DNA of 64,000 nt from Planctomycetota bacterium (GCA_038212275.1 JBBQUR010000005.1:160001-224000), one strand, 5' to 3'. Counted from the stretch's first letter, positions 2,107 to 50,741 are shown. Notes: generated by a model not told the origin, from the sequence alone. Made by a program: numbers and translations.

Positions 2107-3189
2107 ATGAAGCCGACCGAACGCCTGCACCGCCTGGGCCAGAGCCTGTGGCTCGACAACATCTCGCGCGGCCTGCTCGATGACGGCAGCCTCGCGCGCA
2201 CGATCCGGGAGCTCTCGGTGACGGGGCTCACCTCCAATCCCACCATCTTCGAGCACGCGATCCGCGGCGGGCACTACGACGCCGCCATCCGCAGGAAGGC
2301 TGCGGCGGGCCTGCAGCCCGAGCCGCTGTTCTTCGAACTCGCGCTGGAGGACATCACGCGCGCCGCCGACTTGTTCCGGCCGGTGCATGAGGCGACCTGC
2401 GGGGTGGATGGGTGGGTCTCGCTCGAGTTGTCGCCCGACCTCGCCGACGACACGCAGGCCAGCATCTCCGCGGCCTACGACCTGCACACGCGCGCCGGGC
2501 GCAGCAACGTCTTCATCAAGATCCCGGGCACACCGGCCGGCATCCCGGCCATCGAGGAATCCATCTTTGCCGGCGTGCCGGTGAACGTGACGCTGCTGTT
2601 CTCGGCCGAGCAATACCTCGCCGCGGCCGGCGCCTACCTGCGCGGCATCGAGCGGCGCCTCGCGGCCGGACTCGACCCCGACGTGCGCTCCGTGGCCTCG
2701 CTCTTCGTGAGCCGCTGGGACACGGCCGTCGCAGACAAGGTGCCCGCCGCGCTGCGCGACCGGCTGGGCATCGCGATCGCGCGCCGCACCTACCGCGTGG
2801 CGCGCGAGCTGCACGAGAGCGACCGCTGGCTGGCGCTGCTCAATGCCGGAGCGCGAGCCCAGCGCGTGCTGTGGGCCAGCACCAGCACCAAGAGTGCCAG
2901 CGCACCCGACGTCCTTTACGTGGAGGCGCTGGCCGCGCCACACACCGTGAACACGATGCCGGACAAGACGCTGGCGGCCTTCGCCGACCACGGCTGCGTG
3001 GCCGCCCTCATGCCGCGCGACGGCGGCGACGCCGAGGCCGTTCTCGAACAATTCACGAAGGCCGGCGTGGACCTGTCCGCCCTGGCCGGCAAGTTGCAGC
3101 GCGACGGCGCCGCCTCCTTCGCCAGATCGTGGAAGGACCTGCTCGCCGGCATCGCGGAGCGCAGCGCCACGCTGGGCAGCGCGCACTGA
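2107..3189 (+). CDS. tal: transaldolase
   Basis: GQSLWLDNISR, GLTSNPTIF, NVFIKIPGT (Schiff-base Lys), VNVTLLFS and QRVLWASTSTK motifs; GGGAGA SD upstream. Confidence 0.95.
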   Translation: MKPTERLHRLGQSLWLDNISRGLLDDGSLARTIRELSVTGLTSNPTIFEHAIRGGHYDAAIRRKAAAGLQPEPLFFELALEDITRAADLFRPVHEATCGVDGWVSLELSPDLADDTQASISAAYDLHTRAGRSNVFIKIPGTPAGIPAIEESIFAGVPVNVTLLFSAEQYLAAAGAYLRGIERRLAAGLDPDVRSVASLFVSRWDTAVADKVPAALRDRLGIAIARRTYRVARELHESDRWLALLNAGARAQRVLWASTSTKSASAPDVLYVEALAAPHTVNTMPDKTLAAFADHGCVAALMPRDGGDAEAVLEQFTKAGVDLSALAGKLQRDGAASFARSWKDLLAGIAERSATLGSAH

Positions 3190-3346
3190 GCACTGAGCGT
3201 TGAGCCCTGAGCGTTGAGCCCTGAGCCCTGAGCCGTGAGCCCTGAGCCGTGAGCCGTGAGCCGTGAGCCGCGAGCCGCGAGCCGCGATGCGCCGCGATGC
3301 GCCGCGACGAGATGCGCCGCGCCGCGCTGCGCCGCGCCGCGATGCG
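3184..3346. repeat. drifting short tandem repeat array (7-bp TGAGCNN, then CGAGCCG, then GCGCC/GCGAT units)
   Basis: Read directly: cactgag cactgag cgttgag ccctgag ... ccgtgag ... ccgcgag ccgcgat gcgccgcgat. Begins on the tal stop codon. Confidence 0.9.
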
Positions 3347-3430
3347 GACGGACGGGTTCGTGCGCGGCGTGCTGCCGTGAGCTAGACAGCGGCGTTTTCG
3401 AAACGACATTTTCCAAGGCAGGAGATTCGC

Positions 3431-15663: not shown

Positions 15664-17367
15664 TCAGGCCGTCTCGAGCAGTGCGCGCGGACTCAGGCTC
15701 AGCGTGCGCAGGCGACGGGTGTTCACGATGACCATGACCAGCGCGACGAGCGCGAGGCCCACGACGATCCAGGGCTTGTCCTCGAGCATGACATGCACGA
15801 AGACCATGATGCCGATGACCGGCGTCACCATGAGAAGCATCGCGAAGTTCGATCCGGACTGGCTGGTGCGGAAGGTGCGCGTGAACGGCAGCGCGTCGGC
15901 CGACAGGCTGCGCGCGATCCAGAGCGTGACCGCCAGCACGCTCAGCGTGGAAAAGGCCATGTCCTCGATGCGCAGGCCGCCGAAAAACAACCCGGTGCAG
16001 AGGTAGAGCGCCAGATACCACGGCAGCAGGAAGGCGAAGCACAGCGCCTTGACCGCACCGCAGACCAGCATCCCGTACTGCTCCACCGGTGCGACGGAGT
16101 AGATCCACGCGGCCGCGGGCGTGTCGCTGAAGCGGATGATGTGCAGGATCGAGAGCGAGTACACGACAGGCAGGTAGGCGCACATCAGCGCGCCCTGCTG
16201 CGAGCCGTCGCCGTGGCGCGCCGAGGTCCCGAAGTAGGCCATCATGATCACGGGCATGGCGAGCATCGGGTAGACGCGCTGGCGGAATTGCCGTTCGCGC
16301 GCGGCGAGGCCGAGAAACAGGTCGAAGCCCGCGCGCTCGAGGCCCGGGCGCGCGAGCCTGCGGCCGAGCCGACGCAGCGGGCCGGGGCGGTCGGAGACAG
16401 GCGGGCCGCCGCCTTCATCCATCGCCGCCAGGCGCTGCAGCAGGTTGCTGCCTGCGAGGCGCAGCACCGCCAGCCCGAGCAGTGCAGGCACCGCGAGCGC
16501 CAGTGCCATCAGGCCGAGGTGCAGCGTGGACGGTTCCGGCGCCGTCGCGGTGGCGAGCGCTGCGAACCAGTACGGCGGAAGCAGCAGCTGCGCCATGTGC
16601 TCGCCCCGCAGCCACTCGCTCACGCTGGGCGACTGCAGCAGCCCGATGAGCAGGTAGTAGCCGCCGAAGGTGACGAGGCTGGCGGCGATCTGCGCGAAGA
16701 GCACCGCGTTGCGCACGCGCTCGGGATGCGTGACCCGCAGCAGCAGCGCGAACACGGCGGTGATCGCGAGCAGCGTGGTGAGCGCCGCGAGGCCAGCCGC
16801 CGCCGCGAACAGCGGCAGCCACGTCGCTGCCGGGAAGAGGAAGGCGCCGACGATCCAGGTGGGAGAGGCGAAACTCGCCGCGATCAGGCCCGTGTAGAGC
16901 AGCGCATGCCCCGTGCGCGCCAGCAGCAGCGTGCGCGGCGAGACCGGCAGCGCGCCGAGGATGGTCACGTCCGCCGGCGCGAGCAGCAGGTCCACCAGGT
17001 CCGTGACGAGCGCCATGCCGAGCAGGACGAACAGCATCGCGCAGGCCAGCGCCGTGAGCGCCCGCGCGTCGTGCAGCTGCATGCCGAACAGGGCGAGGAG
17101 CCAGCCGAAGACGTGGTTCAGTCCGCAGGTCAGCGCCAGGCCGCTGGCGGAGACCTTGTTGGGGTTCTTGAGCCCGCCGACGCGCAGGTCGAGGCGCAGC
17201 TTCACGCGCAGGATCGCGAGGAAGGCCGTGCGATCCGCGCCCATCCACCCGGCCACGACGGCCAGCGGTTCGGACAGCGCGCACAGCACCCGCAGCGGCC
17301 TGCCGTCCGGCCGCACGGTGTCCGAGGGAGGCTCGTTCGCCCGCCGGCTGCCGAACAGCGCGCTCAC
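15664..17367 (-). CDS. multi-pass membrane protein, putative ABC exporter permease
   Basis: About 12 hydrophobic segments and an LPVSPRTLLLAR motif; coupled (GTGA overlap) to the upstream ABC ATPase. Confidence 0.75.
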   Translation of the reverse strand: MSALFGSRRANEPPSDTVRPDGRPLRVLCALSEPLAVVAGWMGADRTAFLAILRVKLRLDLRVGGLKNPNKVSASGLALTCGLNHVFGWLLALFGMQLHDARALTALACAMLFVLLGMALVTDLVDLLLAPADVTILGALPVSPRTLLLARTGHALLYTGLIAASFASPTWIVGAFLFPAATWLPLFAAAAGLAALTTLLAITAVFALLLRVTHPERVRNAVLFAQIAASLVTFGGYYLLIGLLQSPSVSEWLRGEHMAQLLLPPYWFAALATATAPEPSTLHLGLMALALAVPALLGLAVLRLAGSNLLQRLAAMDEGGGPPVSDRPGPLRRLGRRLARPGLERAGFDLFLGLAARERQFRQRVYPMLAMPVIMMAYFGTSARHGDGSQQGALMCAYLPVVYSLSILHIIRFSDTPAAAWIYSVAPVEQYGMLVCGAVKALCFAFLLPWYLALYLCTGLFFGGLRIEDMAFSTLSVLAVTLWIARSLSADALPFTRTFRTSQSGSNFAMLLMVTPVIGIMVFVHVMLEDKPWIVVGLALVALVMVIVNTRRLRTLSLSPRALLETA

Positions 17368-44521: not shown

Positions 44522-46035
44522 CGGCGCCGCGTCCGCTCGTGCTGGTCACCGGCTCCACCGGGTACGTCGGCGGGAGGCTCGTGCCGCGCTTGCTCGAACG
44601 CGGCTTCGCCGTGCGCGTGCTCGTGCGCGACCCGGCTCGCCTCGACGCCGGCCGCTGGCCGGGTGTGCAGGTCGTGTGCGGCGACGTGCTCGATCCCGCG
44701 ACCCTGGGCCGCGCGTTCGTCGGCTGCCGGCAGGCCTTCTATCTCATCCACGCGATGGCCGCCGGCGAGGAGGGCTTCGCCGAGCGCGATCGCCGCGCTG
44801 CGCAATCCTTCGGTGCTGCTGCGGCGGCCGCCGGCGTCTCGCGCCTCATCTATCTCGGCGGGCTCGGGGATCCGGACTCCGCGCTGTCACCGCACCTTGC
44901 CAGCCGCCAGCAGACGGGCGCAGCGCTGGCGGAGGCGGGTGTGCCGGTGCTCGAACTGCGCGCGGCTGTCATCGTGGGCTCGGGCAGCATCTCGTTCGAG
45001 ATGGTGCGTTACCTCGTGGAGCGCGTGCCGGTGCTCATCGCTCCGCGCTGGACGGCCACGCGCTGCCAGCCGATCGCCATCAGGGACGTGCTGCACTACC
45101 TGATCGCGGCCGCGGAGTTGCCCGACGCGGACGTCGGCAACGGCCGCATCGTGGAGATCGGCGGCGCCGACGTGCTGACCTACGGCGAGATGCTGCTGCG
45201 CTGTGCGCGTGCGCGCGGCCTGCGCCGCTGGCTGATTCACGTGCCGGTGCTCACGCCCCGGCTCTCGTCGCTGTGGGTGGACCTGGTCACGCCCATTCCC
45301 GCGGCGCTTGCACGTCCGCTCATCGAGGGGCTTCGCACCGAGGTCGTCGTGCGCGGCAACGACGCACGCACACTGTTTCCCGGGATCGATCCGGTGGACT
45401 ACGACGAGGCCGTGCGCCGGGCCCTGCAACGCCAGGGCGCCGGCGGGCTGGAGACGGTGTGGTCCGGCAGCCGCAGCTCGGCCTTCGATCGCTCACCGGC
45501 TCCGGTGGAGACGGCGCAGCGCGAAGGGCTCATCATCGAGAGGCGCGAAGTGCGCGTGGCGGCCGACGCGGAGCGCGTCTTCAAGGTCTTCACGGGACTT
45601 GGCGGCGATCGCGGCTGGCTCTGCGCCGACGCGCTGTGGAATCTGCGCGGCATCATCGACCGGCTCGTGGGCGGGCCGGGCATGCGGCGCGGGCGGCGCG
45701 ACCCCGACGAGCTGCGCGCCGGCGATGCCTGCGATTTCTGGCGCGTGCTGTCCGTGGAGCGCGGCAGGCACGTGCGCCTCGGCGCGGAGATGAAGCTGCC
45801 CGGCCGCGCGTGGCTCGAGTTCTCCGTGGAGCCCGTGGAATCCGTGGAGCCGACGGACCACGACTCGTCGGGAGGCGGCGCCGCCCCGGCCTCCCGCCTG
45901 CGCACGACGGCCATCTTCGAGCCGCGCGGCCTGCCGGGCCTGCTCTACTGGTACGGCCTGCTGCCGTTCCACAAGCTCATCTTCTCCGGCATGGTGGCCG
46001 CGATCGCGCGCCTCGCCGAGGCCCCCGGACCTTAG
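44518..46035 (+). CDS. NAD(P)-binding SDR-like oxidoreductase with DUF2867 domain (YbjT-like)
   Basis: TGSTGYVGGRL, IYLGGL, SPHLASR, GSGSISFEM, CQPIAIRDVL, AEMKLPGRAWLEF and PRGLPGLLYWY motifs. Confidence 0.9.
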   Translation: MTAPRPLVLVTGSTGYVGGRLVPRLLERGFAVRVLVRDPARLDAGRWPGVQVVCGDVLDPATLGRAFVGCRQAFYLIHAMAAGEEGFAERDRRAAQSFGAAAAAAGVSRLIYLGGLGDPDSALSPHLASRQQTGAALAEAGVPVLELRAAVIVGSGSISFEMVRYLVERVPVLIAPRWTATRCQPIAIRDVLHYLIAAAELPDADVGNGRIVEIGGADVLTYGEMLLRCARARGLRRWLIHVPVLTPRLSSLWVDLVTPIPAALARPLIEGLRTEVVVRGNDARTLFPGIDPVDYDEAVRRALQRQGAGGLETVWSGSRSSAFDRSPAPVETAQREGLIIERREVRVAADAERVFKVFTGLGGDRGWLCADALWNLRGIIDRLVGGPGMRRGRRDPDELRAGDACDFWRVLSVERGRHVRLGAEMKLPGRAWLEFSVEPVESVEPTDHDSSGGGAAPASRLRTTAIFEPRGLPGLLYWYGLLPFHKLIFSGMVAAIARLAEAPGP

Positions 46036-46099
46036 TCCGGCAAGCGCGGCGTTAGTCCGGCAAGCGCGGCGTCGATCCGGCAGGCGCGGCGTCGGTCCG
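46032..46099. repeat. 20-bp tandem repeat TTAGTCCGGCAAGCGCGGCG x2 plus a diverged third copy and a partial fourth
   Basis: Read directly; the first unit contains the stop codon of the YbjT-like gene. Confidence 0.88.
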
Positions 46100-46106
46100 A
46101 TAAATG

Positions 46107-46534
46107 GAGGGCGTGAGGTGATCAGTCCATCGATCCGGCGAGGGATCGGGTCATCGCGATCGAGAATGTGGCCGCCGCACCGAAGACTGGGGAACCACCA
46201 CTGGATGTCCTGAGTGTCTGGCGACCGAGGGACCTGCAATGACCTTGTCTGGAGGTGACCTGTCTGGAGGCAGGTCGGAGCCGAACGATGTCCAGATCAC
46301 ACTCACGCCCTCTCTGTGCAAGACGCGCTGATGCCGAGGATGTAACCGTGCTGTGAGGGGAACAGCACGGCGCCCAGAAACCTGTGCAGTCATGCGAGGT
46401 TGCGCGGCGCGCGGCAGGAATTGTTTCGCGCGCAACGGACGTGGGCGGCAGACATCGAGTCTGGAACATGCGGCGCGGAAGACCCGGTGCGCGACATGTG
46501 AAAGGCGTCACGCATCGCGCGATACATCAGAGAG
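46107..46534 (-). ncRNA. putative structured non-coding RNA (206-nt rod plus multi-hairpin domain), family unassigned
   Basis: Nested inverted repeats 46107-46139/46280-46312, 46149-46161/46231-46244, 46170-46176/46220-46226 and 46178-46187/46207-46216, plus further hairpins to 46534. Five C-A mismatches on plus become G-U pairs on minus. No convincing ORF. Confidence 0.55.
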
Positions 46535-46558: not shown

Positions 46559-47656
46559 TCAGCGCACGCGGCGACGACGATTGCGCACGTAGTCCACCAG
46601 CACGAAGGGCTGCAGCCGATCCGGCGCGGAGAAGTAGGCGCGGCCCTTGTTGGTGGCGGTGAAGCGCTCCACGAACTCCACCAGCGCCGGGTCGCTGGTG
46701 AGCATGAAGGTGGTGATGGGGATGCCCTGGCGCCGGCACGCGGCGGCTTCGTCGAGGGTCTTGTTGACCACGCGCTCATCAAGTCCGAAGGAGTTCTTGT
46801 AGATCAGGCCGCCTTCTTCCGTGAGCGCCGACGGCTTGCCGTCCGTGAGCATGAAGATCTGGCGATTGCCCTGCTTCTTGCGGCGCAGGATCTGCCGCGC
46901 GAGCTGCAGCCCGGCGCGCGTGTTGGTGTGGAATGGACCGACGCCGATGTATGGAAGCTCGTCGAGCGGCACCTCCCAGGCCTCGTCGCCGAAGAGCACG
47001 ACGTGCAGGTCGTCCTTCGGGTAGCGCGTGGTGATGAGCTCCGCGAGCGCCAGCGCCACCTGCTTGGCCGGCGTGATGCGGTCCTCGCCGTAGAGAATCA
47101 TGCTGTGGCTCACGTCGACCATGAGCACCGTCGCGCAGGACGAGAGCTGCTCGGTCTCGTGCACGCGCAGGTCGCGCTCCTCGATGGAGAGTTCGTCGGG
47201 GCCGGTGCGGCGCAGCGCCTCGGTCAGCGTGCCCGCGTTGTCGAGCAGGCCCAGCGCGTCGCCGAACTCCCAGGGCCGAGTCTCGGGCAGGCGCTCGGTG
47301 CCGGTGCCGGTGGCCGTGCTGCGATGATCGCCGGCCTGCCCGCCGGGGAGCCCCGCGAAGACCGCATCCAGCGAGGAGGTGCGCAGCAGCCGCTCGCCGC
47401 TGGGGGCCAGGCGCACCATGCCGGAGCGGTCCTCCGCGATGAGTTTCTCGCCGAGCAGTTGCTTGCGGACGTCCTCCAGCGTGAGGTCCGCGTCAAAGAG
47501 GTTGTGGCGCCGGCCGAGCTGCCCCAACCACTCCATGGCCTGCTCCGCGTCGCCGTTCGTGCGCAGCAGCAGCTCGAGGAACAGCCGCCGCAGCATGTCC
47601 ATGCGCTGCTCGCGCCGGCGGGCCTGCGGGTCGAAGCGTGAGTAGCGGACGTCCAT
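46559..47656 (-). CDS. VWA domain-containing protein (partner type of MoxR/chelatase-like AAA+ ATPases)
   Basis: MIDAS DVSHS, HTNT and MLTDGKPS motifs; TAGGAT box 11 nt before ATG. Confidence 0.9.
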   Translation of the reverse strand: MDVRYSRFDPQARRREQRMDMLRRLFLELLLRTNGDAEQAMEWLGQLGRRHNLFDADLTLEDVRKQLLGEKLIAEDRSGMVRLAPSGERLLRTSSLDAVFAGLPGGQAGDHRSTATGTGTERLPETRPWEFGDALGLLDNAGTLTEALRRTGPDELSIEERDLRVHETEQLSSCATVLMVDVSHSMILYGEDRITPAKQVALALAELITTRYPKDDLHVVLFGDEAWEVPLDELPYIGVGPFHTNTRAGLQLARQILRRKKQGNRQIFMLTDGKPSALTEEGGLIYKNSFGLDERVVNKTLDEAAACRRQGIPITTFMLTSDPALVEFVERFTATNKGRAYFSAPDRLQPFVLVDYVRNRRRRVR

Positions 47657-47801
47657 CGGTGCGACCCATCCTAGCGCGGCCGATCGGTTCCGCCGGAGGG
47701 CAGGCACGCGCGTCGGCGTTTCCGGATCCTCTTCATGGGCGGGCCCGATGCCTGCCGTCGCGACTCCGCCCGCGCCGCCGCCGTCCCATGGAGTGCCGCC
47801 C

Positions 47802-50741
47802 GTGTCCCGCTGCCGCCCATGCTCCTGCTTCATGGCCCTGTTTCCGACGCTGCTCGCCCTGCTGTTCGTGGGGCGGCCCGCGGCCGGCCAGGTGCCGCTG
47901 CTCACTTACCACGGCAATTCCAACGGCGCGGAGTTCGGCACCGCACTCGCCTACGCCGAAGGCATCCAGGGCAAGTTCGTGCCGTACATCCTCGTGGGTT
48001 GCCCGGAGGACGACAGCGTCGGCGAGGATGCCGGCCGAGTCGACGTCTACAACAGTGGCGACGGCTCGCTCGTGCGCACGCACTACGGCGCGGCCACTGG
48101 CGACCGCTTCGGCACCGCGTTGGTCGGCCTCCAGGATCTGGACGGCGACGGGCATGGCGACTACGCGATCGGCGCGCCCTTCGCGGACAGCCACGGCACC
48201 GACTCCGGGCAGGTGAAGGTGTACTGCGGCACCGACGGCCATCTGATCGCCACGATCAACGGCCTGGCCGCCGGCGACCGTTTCGGCTCCGCCATGGGCA
48301 ACCTCGGGCTCATCAAGCTCAGCCCGTCGGACCCCGAGGGCCTGCCGAGTCTGGCCATCGGCGCGCCGTATGCCGACGGTCCGGCCGGCGCCGACACGGG
48401 TGCGGTCTTCTTCCGCATCGCCGACGGAAGCCTGATTCCGGGCGTGCTGCCCGAGAAGCGGGGCGTGCAGGCGGCCGAGCACTACGGCAGTGCGATCGAC
48501 GGGCGCCTTGACGCGTTGGTCATCGGCGCGCCCGACTACAACGGCCTCGCGGGCACCGACTCGGGTCGGTACGAGGCGTGGACCGTGTACGGACTCGGTA
48601 GCTCGGGGACGTTCGAGTTCGAGGTGCGCGGCACCGCGCCGAACGCGCATCTCGGCACCGCCGTCGCCATCGTCGACTGGCCGAAGCCGATCGCGACCCT
48701 CTATTCCGTCTACGCGGCGGGCGCGCCGGGCGGAACCTCGCCGTACGTGACGATCGACGCGATCAACACGCTGCTGGGCCAGCCGCCGCAGTCGCACCTG
48801 ACGACGCTCGTCGGTACGGGTGGCTTCGGCTCGGCCGTCGCCAGCACGGGCGCCTCTCTCGGCGGCGGTTCCCTCATCGCCATCGGCGCCCCGGACTTCG
48901 TGGTCGGCGGCACCTCCAAGGGCCGCGTCTGGATCTACGAGTACGGCACCTTCCTCAAGGCGGTGGACGGCGAGGTCACGGGCGAGCGCTTCGGCGCGAC
49001 GATCGCGGGACAGTTCGTGTACCCGGCGGTGTACCCGTACTCGTGGGATCACTTCCTCATCGGCGCGCCGCAGTCGGACGGCACGGTGCCGGACGCGGGC
49101 CGGGTCGTGCAGAACCACGTCGGCGACCTGCAGTTCGAGCTGCCGGCGCCGCCAACCTTCGGCGACGCCGCGGGCAGCGCCGTGGCTGGCGTCGGCGACA
49201 TCGACGGCGATGGCGTGCCCGACGTGCTCGTCGGCAGCCCGGACGACGATGTCCCGGCCTCGTTCCCGATCGTCAGTGAACGCATCGACTGCGGGAGTGC
49301 CAGGGTGCTGTCCGGCGCGACCGGCGCGGTGCTGCGCACGCACCTCGGCGGCTCCGACGGCGATCACCTCGGCGCATCGGTCGCGGCGCTGGGCGACATC
49401 AACCTCGATGGCACCACCGACTACGTGATCGGCGCACCGCAGTTCGACAACACGAGCACCACCGCCGGCTACGCGATCGTGGTGTCCGGCAAGACGGGCT
49501 CCACGCTGTTCACGCTGAACGGCTTCTTCAACTCCGGCGAGTTCGGCGCGGCGGTCGGCGGCGGCAGCGACGTGAACGGCGATGGCAGACCCGACATCCT
49601 GGTCGGCTCGCCAGGCACCTCCAACGGCAACGTGACCGCGTACTCGGGCATCAACGGCGCCTCGCTCGGCGTCGTCAACGGCGCGAACGCCGGCGACCGC
49701 TTCGGCGCCGCGGTCGCGGGCCTCGGCGCGGACCTCGACGGCGACGGCAAGCAGGAGTACGTCGTCGGCGCGCCGGGCTTCGACGGTCTCGGCGGCGCCG
49801 ACAGCGGGCGCGCCTACCTGATGAAGAGCGTCGTCTCGCTGTTGACGATCAACGCCGCGAGCGGTTTCCATGCGAACGATCACCTGGGCACGGCGGTCGC
49901 GGCCGCGGGCGACGTGAACAAGGACGGCAAGGCCGACTACCTCGTCGGCATTCCCGAGTACGACAGCCCGGCCACGGACGCCGGCCGCGTGCAGCTCCTC
50001 TCGGGCGTCGCCGGCTTGCCCACGCAGCTCGCGACGGTCTCGGGCCTCGGCGCCAACGACCGCTTCGGCAGCTCACTCACCGCCCTCGGCGACGTGAACC
50101 ACGACGGCTGGCTCGACTGGGCCGCCGGCGCGCGCGAGCTCGACCCGTTCCTGCCGGGCAACGGCTACGTGCGCATCATGTCCGGCAAGGACAACACGCA
50201 GCTTCTGCTCATCGCGGGCTCAGTGAGCGAGACCTTCGGCGCCGCGATCGCGGATGCCGGCGACGTGGATGGCGACGGCACGCGCGACCTGCTGGTCGGC
50301 GGCCCGTACGACAACAGCTTCGGGTACCACTCGGGCGCCGCGCACGTCGTCTCGCTCGCCACCGGCGCGCCGGTCTGGACCGACCTGGGCTTCGCGCTGG
50401 CCGGCACGCCGGGCCTGCCGTCGCTGGTGGGCACCGGCAGTCTGGTGGCCGGAACCGCCGGCGCGCTCACGCTCTCGAACGCGAAGGCCTCTTCGCTCGC
50501 GTACGTGTTCGTCGCGCTGTCCGCTGCGCCGACGCCGTTCAAGGGCGGCACGCTGGTGCCGATCCCGCCGCTGCTGACGCTCGTGCTGGGCACCAACGCG
50601 TCGGGCGGCCTGACGCTGCCGTGGGCCGCGTGGCCCGCGGGCCTCTCGGGCCTGGACCTGTACTTCCAGGAAGCGATCCAGGACGCCGCCGCGGTGAAGG
50701 GTGCCGCGCTGAGCAACGCGCTGCGCGCCGACGTGCCGTGA
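47802..50741 (+). CDS. integrin-alpha/FG-GAP repeat exoprotein with conserved ~120-aa C-terminal domain
   Basis: Signal peptide; more than 10 FG...DxxGDG...GAP repeats; GGAG SD before GTG 47802 (ATG 47832 is an alternative). C-terminus is homologous to that of CDS 2..2011. Confidence 0.9.
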   Translation: MSRCRPCSCFMALFPTLLALLFVGRPAAGQVPLLTYHGNSNGAEFGTALAYAEGIQGKFVPYILVGCPEDDSVGEDAGRVDVYNSGDGSLVRTHYGAATGDRFGTALVGLQDLDGDGHGDYAIGAPFADSHGTDSGQVKVYCGTDGHLIATINGLAAGDRFGSAMGNLGLIKLSPSDPEGLPSLAIGAPYADGPAGADTGAVFFRIADGSLIPGVLPEKRGVQAAEHYGSAIDGRLDALVIGAPDYNGLAGTDSGRYEAWTVYGLGSSGTFEFEVRGTAPNAHLGTAVAIVDWPKPIATLYSVYAAGAPGGTSPYVTIDAINTLLGQPPQSHLTTLVGTGGFGSAVASTGASLGGGSLIAIGAPDFVVGGTSKGRVWIYEYGTFLKAVDGEVTGERFGATIAGQFVYPAVYPYSWDHFLIGAPQSDGTVPDAGRVVQNHVGDLQFELPAPPTFGDAAGSAVAGVGDIDGDGVPDVLVGSPDDDVPASFPIVSERIDCGSARVLSGATGAVLRTHLGGSDGDHLGASVAALGDINLDGTTDYVIGAPQFDNTSTTAGYAIVVSGKTGSTLFTLNGFFNSGEFGAAVGGGSDVNGDGRPDILVGSPGTSNGNVTAYSGINGASLGVVNGANAGDRFGAAVAGLGADLDGDGKQEYVVGAPGFDGLGGADSGRAYLMKSVVSLLTINAASGFHANDHLGTAVAAAGDVNKDGKADYLVGIPEYDSPATDAGRVQLLSGVAGLPTQLATVSGLGANDRFGSSLTALGDVNHDGWLDWAAGARELDPFLPGNGYVRIMSGKDNTQLLLIAGSVSETFGAAIADAGDVDGDGTRDLLVGGPYDNSFGYHSGAAHVVSLATGAPVWTDLGFALAGTPGLPSLVGTGSLVAGTAGALTLSNAKASSLAYVFVALSAAPTPFKGGTLVPIPPLLTLVLGTNASGGLTLPWAAWPAGLSGLDLYFQEAIQDAAAVKGAALSNALRADVP

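Follow-up and report, generated by a model that had tools for sequence, protein, structure and literature searches.

Among the described systems closest to the element examined here, the sigma-E-dependent small RNAs (sRNAs) RybB, MicA and MicL of enterobacteria are about 70-90 nucleotides (nt) long, depend on Hfq, and use seed sequences at their 5′ ends to target mRNAs for outer-membrane proteins. RsaE/RoxS and the streptococcal csRNAs, which are 90-150 nt in length, carry C-rich motifs in small hairpin loops and pair with Shine-Dalgarno regions. 6S RNA (SsrS, RF00013) folds into a rod of about 200 nt, in which a large central bubble separates a closing stem from a terminal stem-loop. Finally, OmrA and OmrB are reported to repress the mRNA of their own activator, OmpR (PMC2588501, PMC5175337). 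Here we describe an RNA element encoded on the minus strand at positions 46107-46312 of a 64,000-nt stretch of DNA (hereafter the window) from Planctomycetota bacterium (GCA_038212275.1 JBBQUR010000005.1:160001-224000). It is a conserved, covarying rod with a defined sense strand, is present as a single copy in its genome, belongs to no Rfam family, and is conserved above its flanking spacers. We consider the evidence that this RNA is real to be solid, and the mechanism proposed for it below to be plausible.

As we read the locus, the RNA would resemble the sigma-E sRNAs in being made from an extracytoplasmic function (ECF) sigma promoter, in repressing mRNA translation, and in feeding back on the sigma response. 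It would differ from them in its rod shape and length of 200 nt, in carrying its C-rich motifs internally, in coming from a genome that yielded no Hfq gene, and in having the sigma mRNA itself as its proposed target. The Gram-positive C-rich sRNAs likewise carry unpaired and often multi-copy Shine-Dalgarno-complementary motifs without strict Hfq dependence, but here a long rod presents the motifs from its central bubble, and there is no sequence similarity or Rfam match. The RNA would share its logic with the OmrA/OmrB circuit, in which an sRNA represses its own activator by way of the mRNA, although control there is exerted by a two-component system rather than an ECF sigma factor, and the sequences and structures are unrelated. 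Our coverage of the literature, which did not extend to subscription journals, yielded no description of this RNA and no characterised planctomycete regulatory RNA.

When folded by RNAfold, the minus strand of positions 46107-46312 (206 nt) forms a single rod with a minimum free energy of -99.4 kcal/mol, compared with an average of -75.8±4.7 kcal/mol for 200 dinucleotide shuffles, none of which folds as well (z = -5.06). The plus strand folds more weakly (-95.4 kcal/mol, z = -3.00), and two of 200 shuffles are as good. The rod begins with an outer stem of 11+6 base pairs containing a bulged U, continues through the helices CAUCG/CGAUG and UUCGGC/GCCGGA to an asymmetric central bubble from which a small hairpin projects, and ends in a set of inner stems and an apical loop. 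Expressed as proportions, the closing stem comprises nt 1-33 and 174-206, the bubble nt 34-68 and 165-173, and the terminal stem nt 69-164. A first-pass annotation of the window, made by a model from the sequence alone, had described this rod and suggested the comparison with shuffles, and the minus-strand fold reproduces its coordinates and stems. That annotation also counted five minus-strand G-U pairs; such pairs are present, but the model structure contains six. The 4x4 loop with a tandem G-A/A-G to which it drew attention is not conserved in homologues. The parts of the element are as follows, where the members are the window copy and the four homologues introduced thereafter.

46107-46312, minus strand: small RNA gene whose rod runs from the closing stem through the central bubble to the terminal stem and apical loop (supported by fold z score, four homologues, covariation and RNAalifold)
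46265-46270 and 46250-46255, minus strand: two unpaired CCUCCA motifs in the 5′ strand of the central bubble (invariant in 5/5 members)
46257-46276, minus strand: small hairpin with the first CCUCCA in its loop (window subtype only)
46140-46145, minus strand: unpaired UCCCUC in the 3′ strand of the central bubble (invariant in 5/5 members)
46185-46209, minus strand: apical stem-loop GACAUsCAGUGGUGGkUCCCnnGUC, the most conserved block (only four variable positions among the five members)

A covariance model built from the window sequence alone identified a homologue in a genome of a related genus (G006:C187:11258-11453, 43 bits, E = 2.8e-6), and this sequence (L121) also folds as a rod (z = -4.02). 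An initial metagenome scan with an exact 22-nt pattern produced no matches. A second metagenome scan, based on the apical block that both sequences have in common, returned three contigs, and all three proved to be true members with strong full-length matches of 126-160 bits; altogether, the four homologues of the window copy score 126-186 bits. The five members fall into two subtypes, one consisting of the window copy and L133, which possess the small hairpin, and the other of L121, L131 and L132, which lack it. The small hairpin itself displays one compensatory change (GACCUG/CAGGUC in the window versus GAUCUG/CAGAUC in L133), and L133 on its own folds with a z score of -5.14.

The five-member alignment provides comparative evidence for the structure. 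Standard base pairs occupy 92.4% of cells compared to 82.5±1.2 in shuffles, and 20 pairs have changed on both sides compared to 9.9±1.9 in shuffles, with none of 500 shuffles reaching 20. When the pairing partner is slid by 1-3 columns as a control, only 0-3 pairs appear changed on both sides. RNAalifold recovers the rod both from the model-fitted alignment (20 compensatory pairs) and from a structure-blind MAFFT alignment (10 compensatory pairs). Furthermore, the modelled orientation contains 38 G-U cells versus 8 A-C cells, which indicates that the RNA is read from the minus strand of the window and is not a DNA palindrome; similarly, the sense strand of L121 folds at -102.7 kcal/mol versus -90.5 for its antisense. 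Conservation is concentrated in the RNA, which is 81% identical between the window and L133 while the flanking spacers are 56-58% identical, and 94% identical between L121 and L131 while the neighbouring DUF481 gene is 68% identical. Insertions and deletions among the members are not multiples of three, and thus there is no conserved open reading frame (ORF). These results support the earlier proposal of an unclassified structured non-coding RNA on the minus strand, with selection acting on an RNA rather than on a DNA palindrome. The first-pass annotation would have taken a lack of covariation among homologues as a refutation, and covariation is present.

The same observations weigh on the possibility that the element is a non-functional palindromic DNA relic (a decayed miniature inverted-repeat transposable element, or MITE, or a hairpin repeat) or a long bidirectional terminator. 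Such an explanation would suit the convergent genes on either side and the 17-bp inverted repeats at the ends, and the plus strand, too, beats its shuffles. We nevertheless find it extremely unlikely given the G-U asymmetry, the compensatory pairs, the conservation of unpaired blocks, the presence of a conserved promoter motif at a fixed distance, the occurrence of the G006 subtype in a different gene context, and a consensus scan that found no terminator-like site. A BLAST search also detected just one full-length copy in the 4.65-Mb, 40-contig genome to which the window belongs (G000), and the remaining 23 matches are 15-36 nt in length with E values of at least 0.4. This single copy excludes a MITE or dispersed repeat, for which the first-pass annotation had expected many dispersed copies.

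Contigs assembled from public sequencing runs also cover parts of the element. These derive from activated sludge (X2), compost RNA (X3), an estuary (X5) and a soil metatranscriptome (X7), and they carry 1-3 differences per aligned piece while their flanks diverge. The sludge contig has 4 differences over 283 nt in the region of the element versus 12 over 122 nt in the adjacent coding stretch. Two of the four contigs come from RNA libraries (X3 and X7), which adds support for a structured RNA, and the word depth of the soil contig is 200. Runs X4, X6 and X8, with small word shares, were left aside and carry no habitat claim. That contig ends at 46113, where it is joined directly to a tail that we take to be Illumina adapter, and beyond 46209 it continues with L133-like sequence.

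The first-pass annotation had raised the possibility of a divergent 6S RNA. A search of the entire window against Rfam 15 at gathering scores gave no matches, and a search of a 701-nt region around the element at E ≤ 10 gave only five noise matches (10-15 bits, E = 3.2-8.3), none of them to 6S RNA. Neither RF00013 nor any other family in Rfam 15 includes the rod RNA, and the significant match that, by the first-pass annotation, would have removed its novelty did not appear. For the RF00013 model, whose gathering score is 46.4 bits, the best match in G000 is located on another contig, at C22:73960-74123 on the plus strand (L016:1501-1664), and its score of 34.8 bits is below the cut-off. Matches to this model were found in 10 of the 16 genomes of the family, five of them above the cut-off. 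Both protein genes flanking the C22 candidate are common to all nine other loci (tblastn, E ≤ 1.5e-53), and this shared synteny accounts for the housekeeping 6S RNA outside the element. We conclude that C22:73960-74123 is the probable 6S RNA of G000; the Rfam model under-calls this lineage. The element at 46107-46312 is not the 6S RNA of this cell, and the proposal of a divergent 6S RNA is not supported in the sense of family membership.

Even so, the rod could act in the manner of 6S RNA as a polymerase decoy, with its open bubble mimicking a melted promoter to sequester either the housekeeping or the ECF holoenzyme, in which case it would be a second, stress-induced RNA of the 6S type. Its proportions resemble those of 6S RNA, and both strands of the bubble are pyrimidine-rich and unable to pair with each other, so the bubble is open in all five members. 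Like 6S RNA, it is apparently abundant in an RNA library, as judged by the high word depth in the soil run. A published account reports two 6S RNAs in some bacteria (PMC3753640). Unlike 6S RNA, the element has no covariance-model match, has an ECF-type promoter and invariant anti-Shine-Dalgarno-like bubble motifs, and is very narrowly distributed (2 of 42 genomes), and the genome carries its own syntenic 6S candidate. A pure shape mimic would have no need for bubble motifs that exactly complement ribosome-binding sequences. On balance, the 6S-like architecture is real and a 6S-like mode of action possible, but we judge the decoy explanation to be rather unlikely. A composite idea, which we regard as improbable, is that a stress-induced mimic of a promoter bubble, expressed through an ECF sigma factor, docks into RNA polymerase holoenzyme and also titrates the ribosome-binding site of a sigma mRNA, thereby serving competition among sigma factors. 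If true, this would be a dual brake on transcription and translation of a kind undescribed in any phylum.

The promoter-like sequences upstream of the rod provide a clue to its regulation. The motif GTTA[CT]-N16-CGTC[AT]T is present in 5/5 members and stops 6-7 nt short of the rod, and the diverged upstream flank of the estuary contig also reads CGTCTT. In the window, its two halves are:

46342-46347, minus strand: -35-like element GGTTAC (motif in 5/5 members, with constant spacing to the rod)
46320-46325, minus strand: -10-like element CGTCTT, ending 7 nt before the rod (motif in 5/5 members)

A -10 element containing CGTC, combined with a 16-nt spacer, is the signature of promoters read by ECF sigma factors. 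G000 is rich in such factors, with 39 matches to sigma-70-family domains, and the motif is rare in the 4.65-Mb genome, at only 38 loose and 10 strict sites. Among the regions upstream of these 39 matches, one loose site was found where 0.08 would be expected. Some 50 nt downstream of this site begins a gene (G000:C2:79170-80816) for a 549-amino-acid (aa) ECF-type sigma factor, which exhibits ECF-type regions 2 and 4 (TIGR02937, 51.5 bits against a cut-off of 42.9) and a C-terminal TPR extension. For reference, the sigma locus G000:C2:79095-80816 corresponds to L143:296-2020. Within the family, 12 genomes encode a full-length orthologue of this protein, and GTTA[CGT]-N16-CGTC is present at 12/12 of these loci, where our first regular expression had matched 9/12. 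The simplest interpretation of the motif upstream of the sigma gene is that it is an autoregulated promoter of that sigma factor. By extension, we infer from the shared motif that this sigma factor recognises it, and that the rod RNA is an ECF-sigma-dependent transcription unit whose start coincides with the beginning of the rod.

The RNA has four conserved unpaired blocks, namely the two CCUCCA motifs, UCCCUC, the apical block and the termini, which read GrGnGCGUG at the 5′ end and CACGCCCyC at the 3′ end. The apical loop, CAGUGGUGG, is strongly conserved. In the same genome, the 3′ end of 16S rRNA reads ...GGAUCACCUCCUUUCU, and the CCUCCA motifs of the RNA resemble this anti-Shine-Dalgarno sequence. 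It is also apparent that the invariant apical GGUGG (46185-46209) is complementary to bubble sequence beside the second CCUCC (46250-46258), and that its partner, as read from the alignment, varies in a wobble-compatible manner: the window has UCACC, L133 has CCACC, and the G006 type has CCAUC. This complementarity could represent a tertiary or dimer contact.

A candidate target for the bubble motifs is the mRNA leader of the ECF sigma factor. In G000 and G006, which are the only genomes with the RNA, this leader reads ...UCUCCUGAGGGAGGAGAUGGAGGGCAG... Within it lie GAGGGA, which exactly complements the unpaired UCCCUC of the RNA, and UGGAGG, which does the same for the unpaired CCUCCA. For the G006-type bubble, CCCUCCAUCCUCC, the complementary sequence is GGAGGA(GA)UGGAGGG. 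The corresponding pattern GGAGGA-N0-3-TGGAGGG is found twice in G006, at the ribosome-binding region of the sigma gene and in the antisense of the RNA gene, and once in G000, at the sigma leader, while the reversed control gives 1 and 0 matches. GAGGGA-N0-12-TGGAGG is found at three sites in G000, the sigma leader among them, and TGGAGG-N0-1-CAGGT, the complement of ACCUG.CCUCCA in the window RNA, at six sites that include the leader and the antisense of the RNA itself. When duplex energies of the bubble were compared across the 12 orthologous leaders, the lowest was obtained with the leader from its own genome for both subtypes (-38.3 kcal/mol with the next at -34.3, and -28.1 with the next at -24.6). 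The RNA would thus offer a conserved single-stranded seed complementary to the initiation region of a target, as expected of a base-pairing sRNA. The G000 and G006 sigma leaders also contain a hairpin, UCUCCU-GAGGG-AGGAGA, just before the ribosome-binding site.

Based on these observations, we propose that the rod RNA is an ECF-dependent, trans-acting regulatory sRNA that acts on Shine-Dalgarno regions and exerts feedback on its own sigma factor, a reading that we hold tentatively and whose chances we place a little short of even. The ECF sigma factor would transcribe the RNA of about 200 nt from GGTTAC-N16-CGTCTT on the minus strand as an independent unit. The long helices would hold open the pyrimidine-rich central bubble, which would display two CCUCCA motifs and one UCCCUC, all of them anti-Shine-Dalgarno-like. 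These would pair with ribosome-binding sites of the GGAGG type and block translation initiation, and the best-supported target would be the leader of the ECF sigma mRNA (GAGGGAGGAGAUGGAGGG). If the sigma factor makes the RNA and the RNA lowers synthesis of the sigma factor, the outcome would be negative feedback. Such feedback would add a post-transcriptional layer to ECF signalling, where none is known in the phylum, and a long open-bubble rod would be a new structural way to present anti-Shine-Dalgarno seeds, in a genome in which no Hfq was found.

A considerable number of observations weigh against this proposal. With regard to the target, the sigma leader was noticed after the fact, every strong Shine-Dalgarno site will be matched by CCUCC, and UCUGGAGG or GAGGGAUC occurs in many further ribosome-binding regions. 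When duplexfold was used naively to rank the whole genome against a 42-nt query, the sigma leader came only 529th of 50,698 prefiltered windows. Extended pairing by the window subtype would require its small hairpin to open, a similar ribosome-binding site (GGAGGGCAGGU) is present in G012 without the RNA, and a rigid 200-nt rod is atypical of sRNAs that pair through seeds. With regard to expression, a consensus scan of the region found no terminator and no sigma-70 promoter, and the sequences UUUAU and AUUU that follow the rod in the window and L133 have no counterpart in the G006 subtype, which lacks a U-tract. The sequencing-run data are contigs, which demonstrate presence in RNA libraries but not strand, start, ends or level. 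The compost contig overshoots the proposed start by 21 nt on its upstream side, reaching 46333; this extension speaks against a sharp start and fits read-through or DNA in the library. Finally, the rod RNA is present in 2 of the 16 genomes of the family and the sigma orthologue in 12, and a sigma factor so much more widespread than the RNA cannot have it as an obligatory partner.

Broader searches for targets were not discriminating. Lists of candidate targets of the Shine-Dalgarno type were long and unspecific, inspection by eye of the apical loop against the sigma leader revealed no convincing complementarity, and a scan for a regulon with the loose motif gave the 38 sites mentioned above, most of them probably inside genes, without a clear regulon. 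We also noted that the gene immediately after another ECF sigma gene (domain at C10:68238-68441), near C10:68710 on the plus strand, has the ribosome-binding site GGGAGGGAUCG, which is complementary to CGAUCCCUC in the 3′ bubble strand of the RNA, although this observation is anecdotal.

The proposed feedback mechanism leaves the most conserved block, GACAUsCAGUGGUGGkUCCC, without an mRNA partner and hence unexplained. The RNA might instead bind a protein or serve as a sponge, with the apical loop and the C/U-rich bubble docking a protein or G-rich RNAs and any mRNA pairing being incidental. The three repeated C-rich motifs would be consistent with this function, as would the extended helices of the rod, since extended helices are typical of protein-bound RNAs. 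We regard this alternative as unlikely, because no conserved neighbour points to a partner (the context is a VWA-domain gene in one subtype and a DUF481 gene in the other, and model R3 found the rod RNA at 0 of 80 VWA loci from other genomes), because searches of G000, which is 91% complete, found no gene for Hfq or for CsrA (PF02599), and because the VWA neighbour has no TROVE/Ro60 domain. A bacterial Y RNA that operates with Ro60 (Rsr) was also considered and dropped, given that the neighbour matches only VWA_2 and is closest to a chelatase-like NCBIfam family, that there is no Rfam match, and that the other VWA loci are devoid of the RNA.

The lack of detected Hfq and CsrA fits an RNA that is stabilised by its own structure, and it also speaks against a CsrA sponge on the opposite strand. 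If the plus strand were the functional one, it would expose two copies of UGGAGG, one of GAGGGA and, in the window copy, an apical-loop CUGGAUGU, and might thereby operate as a GGAGG/GGA-rich sponge of the CsrA/RsmA type. The G-U asymmetry and the promoter motif both favour the minus strand, the apical GGA is not conserved (it is GCA in the G006 type), and no CsrA gene was found in G000, which leaves this explanation with hardly any credibility.

The distribution of the RNA is remarkably restricted. Covariance models R1, R2 and R3 found it only in G000 and G006, amounting to 2/61, 2/16 and 2/42 genomes, respectively, where 16 genomes represent the family and 42 the order, which is equal to the whole class sampled. 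Only part of the first-look candidates in each genome were scored by the models, and weak members may have been missed. BLAST of the intergenic gap against 40 relatives returned a 20-nt tandem repeat and no rod, and when the element was compared by BLAST with 400 further genomes of the phylum, the only matches were of 20-56 nt (E = 3.7e-5 to 0.01), none of them full-length. A pattern for the apical loop with one mismatch allowed was found in 8 of 401 phylum genomes, compared to 19 genomes (20 places) for the reversed control, and since these matches are at chance level none was accepted as a member. Upon re-scoring with model R2, four of the BLAST loci (L100, L101, L109 and L119) together with the eight pattern loci reached at best 14 bits (E = 0.12), and they were rejected. 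We regard the rod RNA as an undescribed family that is found in two genera of one uncultured Planctomycetota family and in metagenomes. This narrow range, of two genera and their metagenome relatives, limits its general impact to a moderate level. It is a concrete, testable RNA family whose structure and strand are defined, whose promoter motif would tie the RNA to a single ECF sigma factor, and for which there is a specific candidate target.

In the window and in L133, the RNA lies between a VWA-domain gene upstream and a convergent NmrA/DUF2867 gene, whereas in L121 and L131 it follows a DUF481 gene, and so the gene context differs between the subtypes. The rod of the window occupies a 523-nt gap between convergent genes, with the plus-strand NmrA/DUF2867 protein gene ending at 46035 and the minus-strand VWA-domain gene ending at 46559. 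Relatives of the VWA-domain neighbour come almost entirely from metagenome-assembled genomes of Planctomycetota, plus Saltatorellus ferox. The adjacency of the VWA gene and the RNA amounts to synteny only. The DUF481 protein of L121 (485-1399, plus strand) has weak N-terminal similarity to Hfq_1 (E = 0.004) and LSM (E = 0.0085), both below the cut-offs. The other features near the RNA gene are:

46559-47905, minus strand: VWA-domain protein, the upstream neighbour on the same strand (Pfam VWA_2, E = 6e-9; L133 has the same neighbour)
46346-46370, minus strand: 9-bp hairpin CCGUGCUGU / ACAGCACGG, between the VWA gene and the promoter and overlapping the -35 element (from reading of the sequence)
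46035-46099, no strand assigned: 20-nt tandem repeat GTCCGGCAAGCGCGGCGTCG, 3.2 copies, outside the rod (TRF score 102)

The 9-bp hairpin is not conserved in L133 and is possibly the terminator of the VWA gene. The tandem repeat is situated directly 3′ of the RNA, and its first base is the last one of the NmrA/DUF2867 stop codon. Related 20-mers are present at G000:C8:118270-118317 and in four further genomes of this order. It may be a short dispersed repeat.

The first-pass annotation had called the gap that holds the rod the only long non-coding gap, which is not exact according to a crude map of third-position GC content (GC3), because other stretches of the window are also uncovered. Positions 15729-16273, 16655-16897 and 3187-3385 lack a long high-GC3 frame, and they have no Rfam match at gathering scores. 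Frames overlap within 47733-50741, where a minus-strand frame of 716 aa with no Pfam family (47733-49883), which is probably a high-GC shadow ORF, lies opposite a plus-strand gene for a 997-aa FG-GAP repeat protein (47748-50741).

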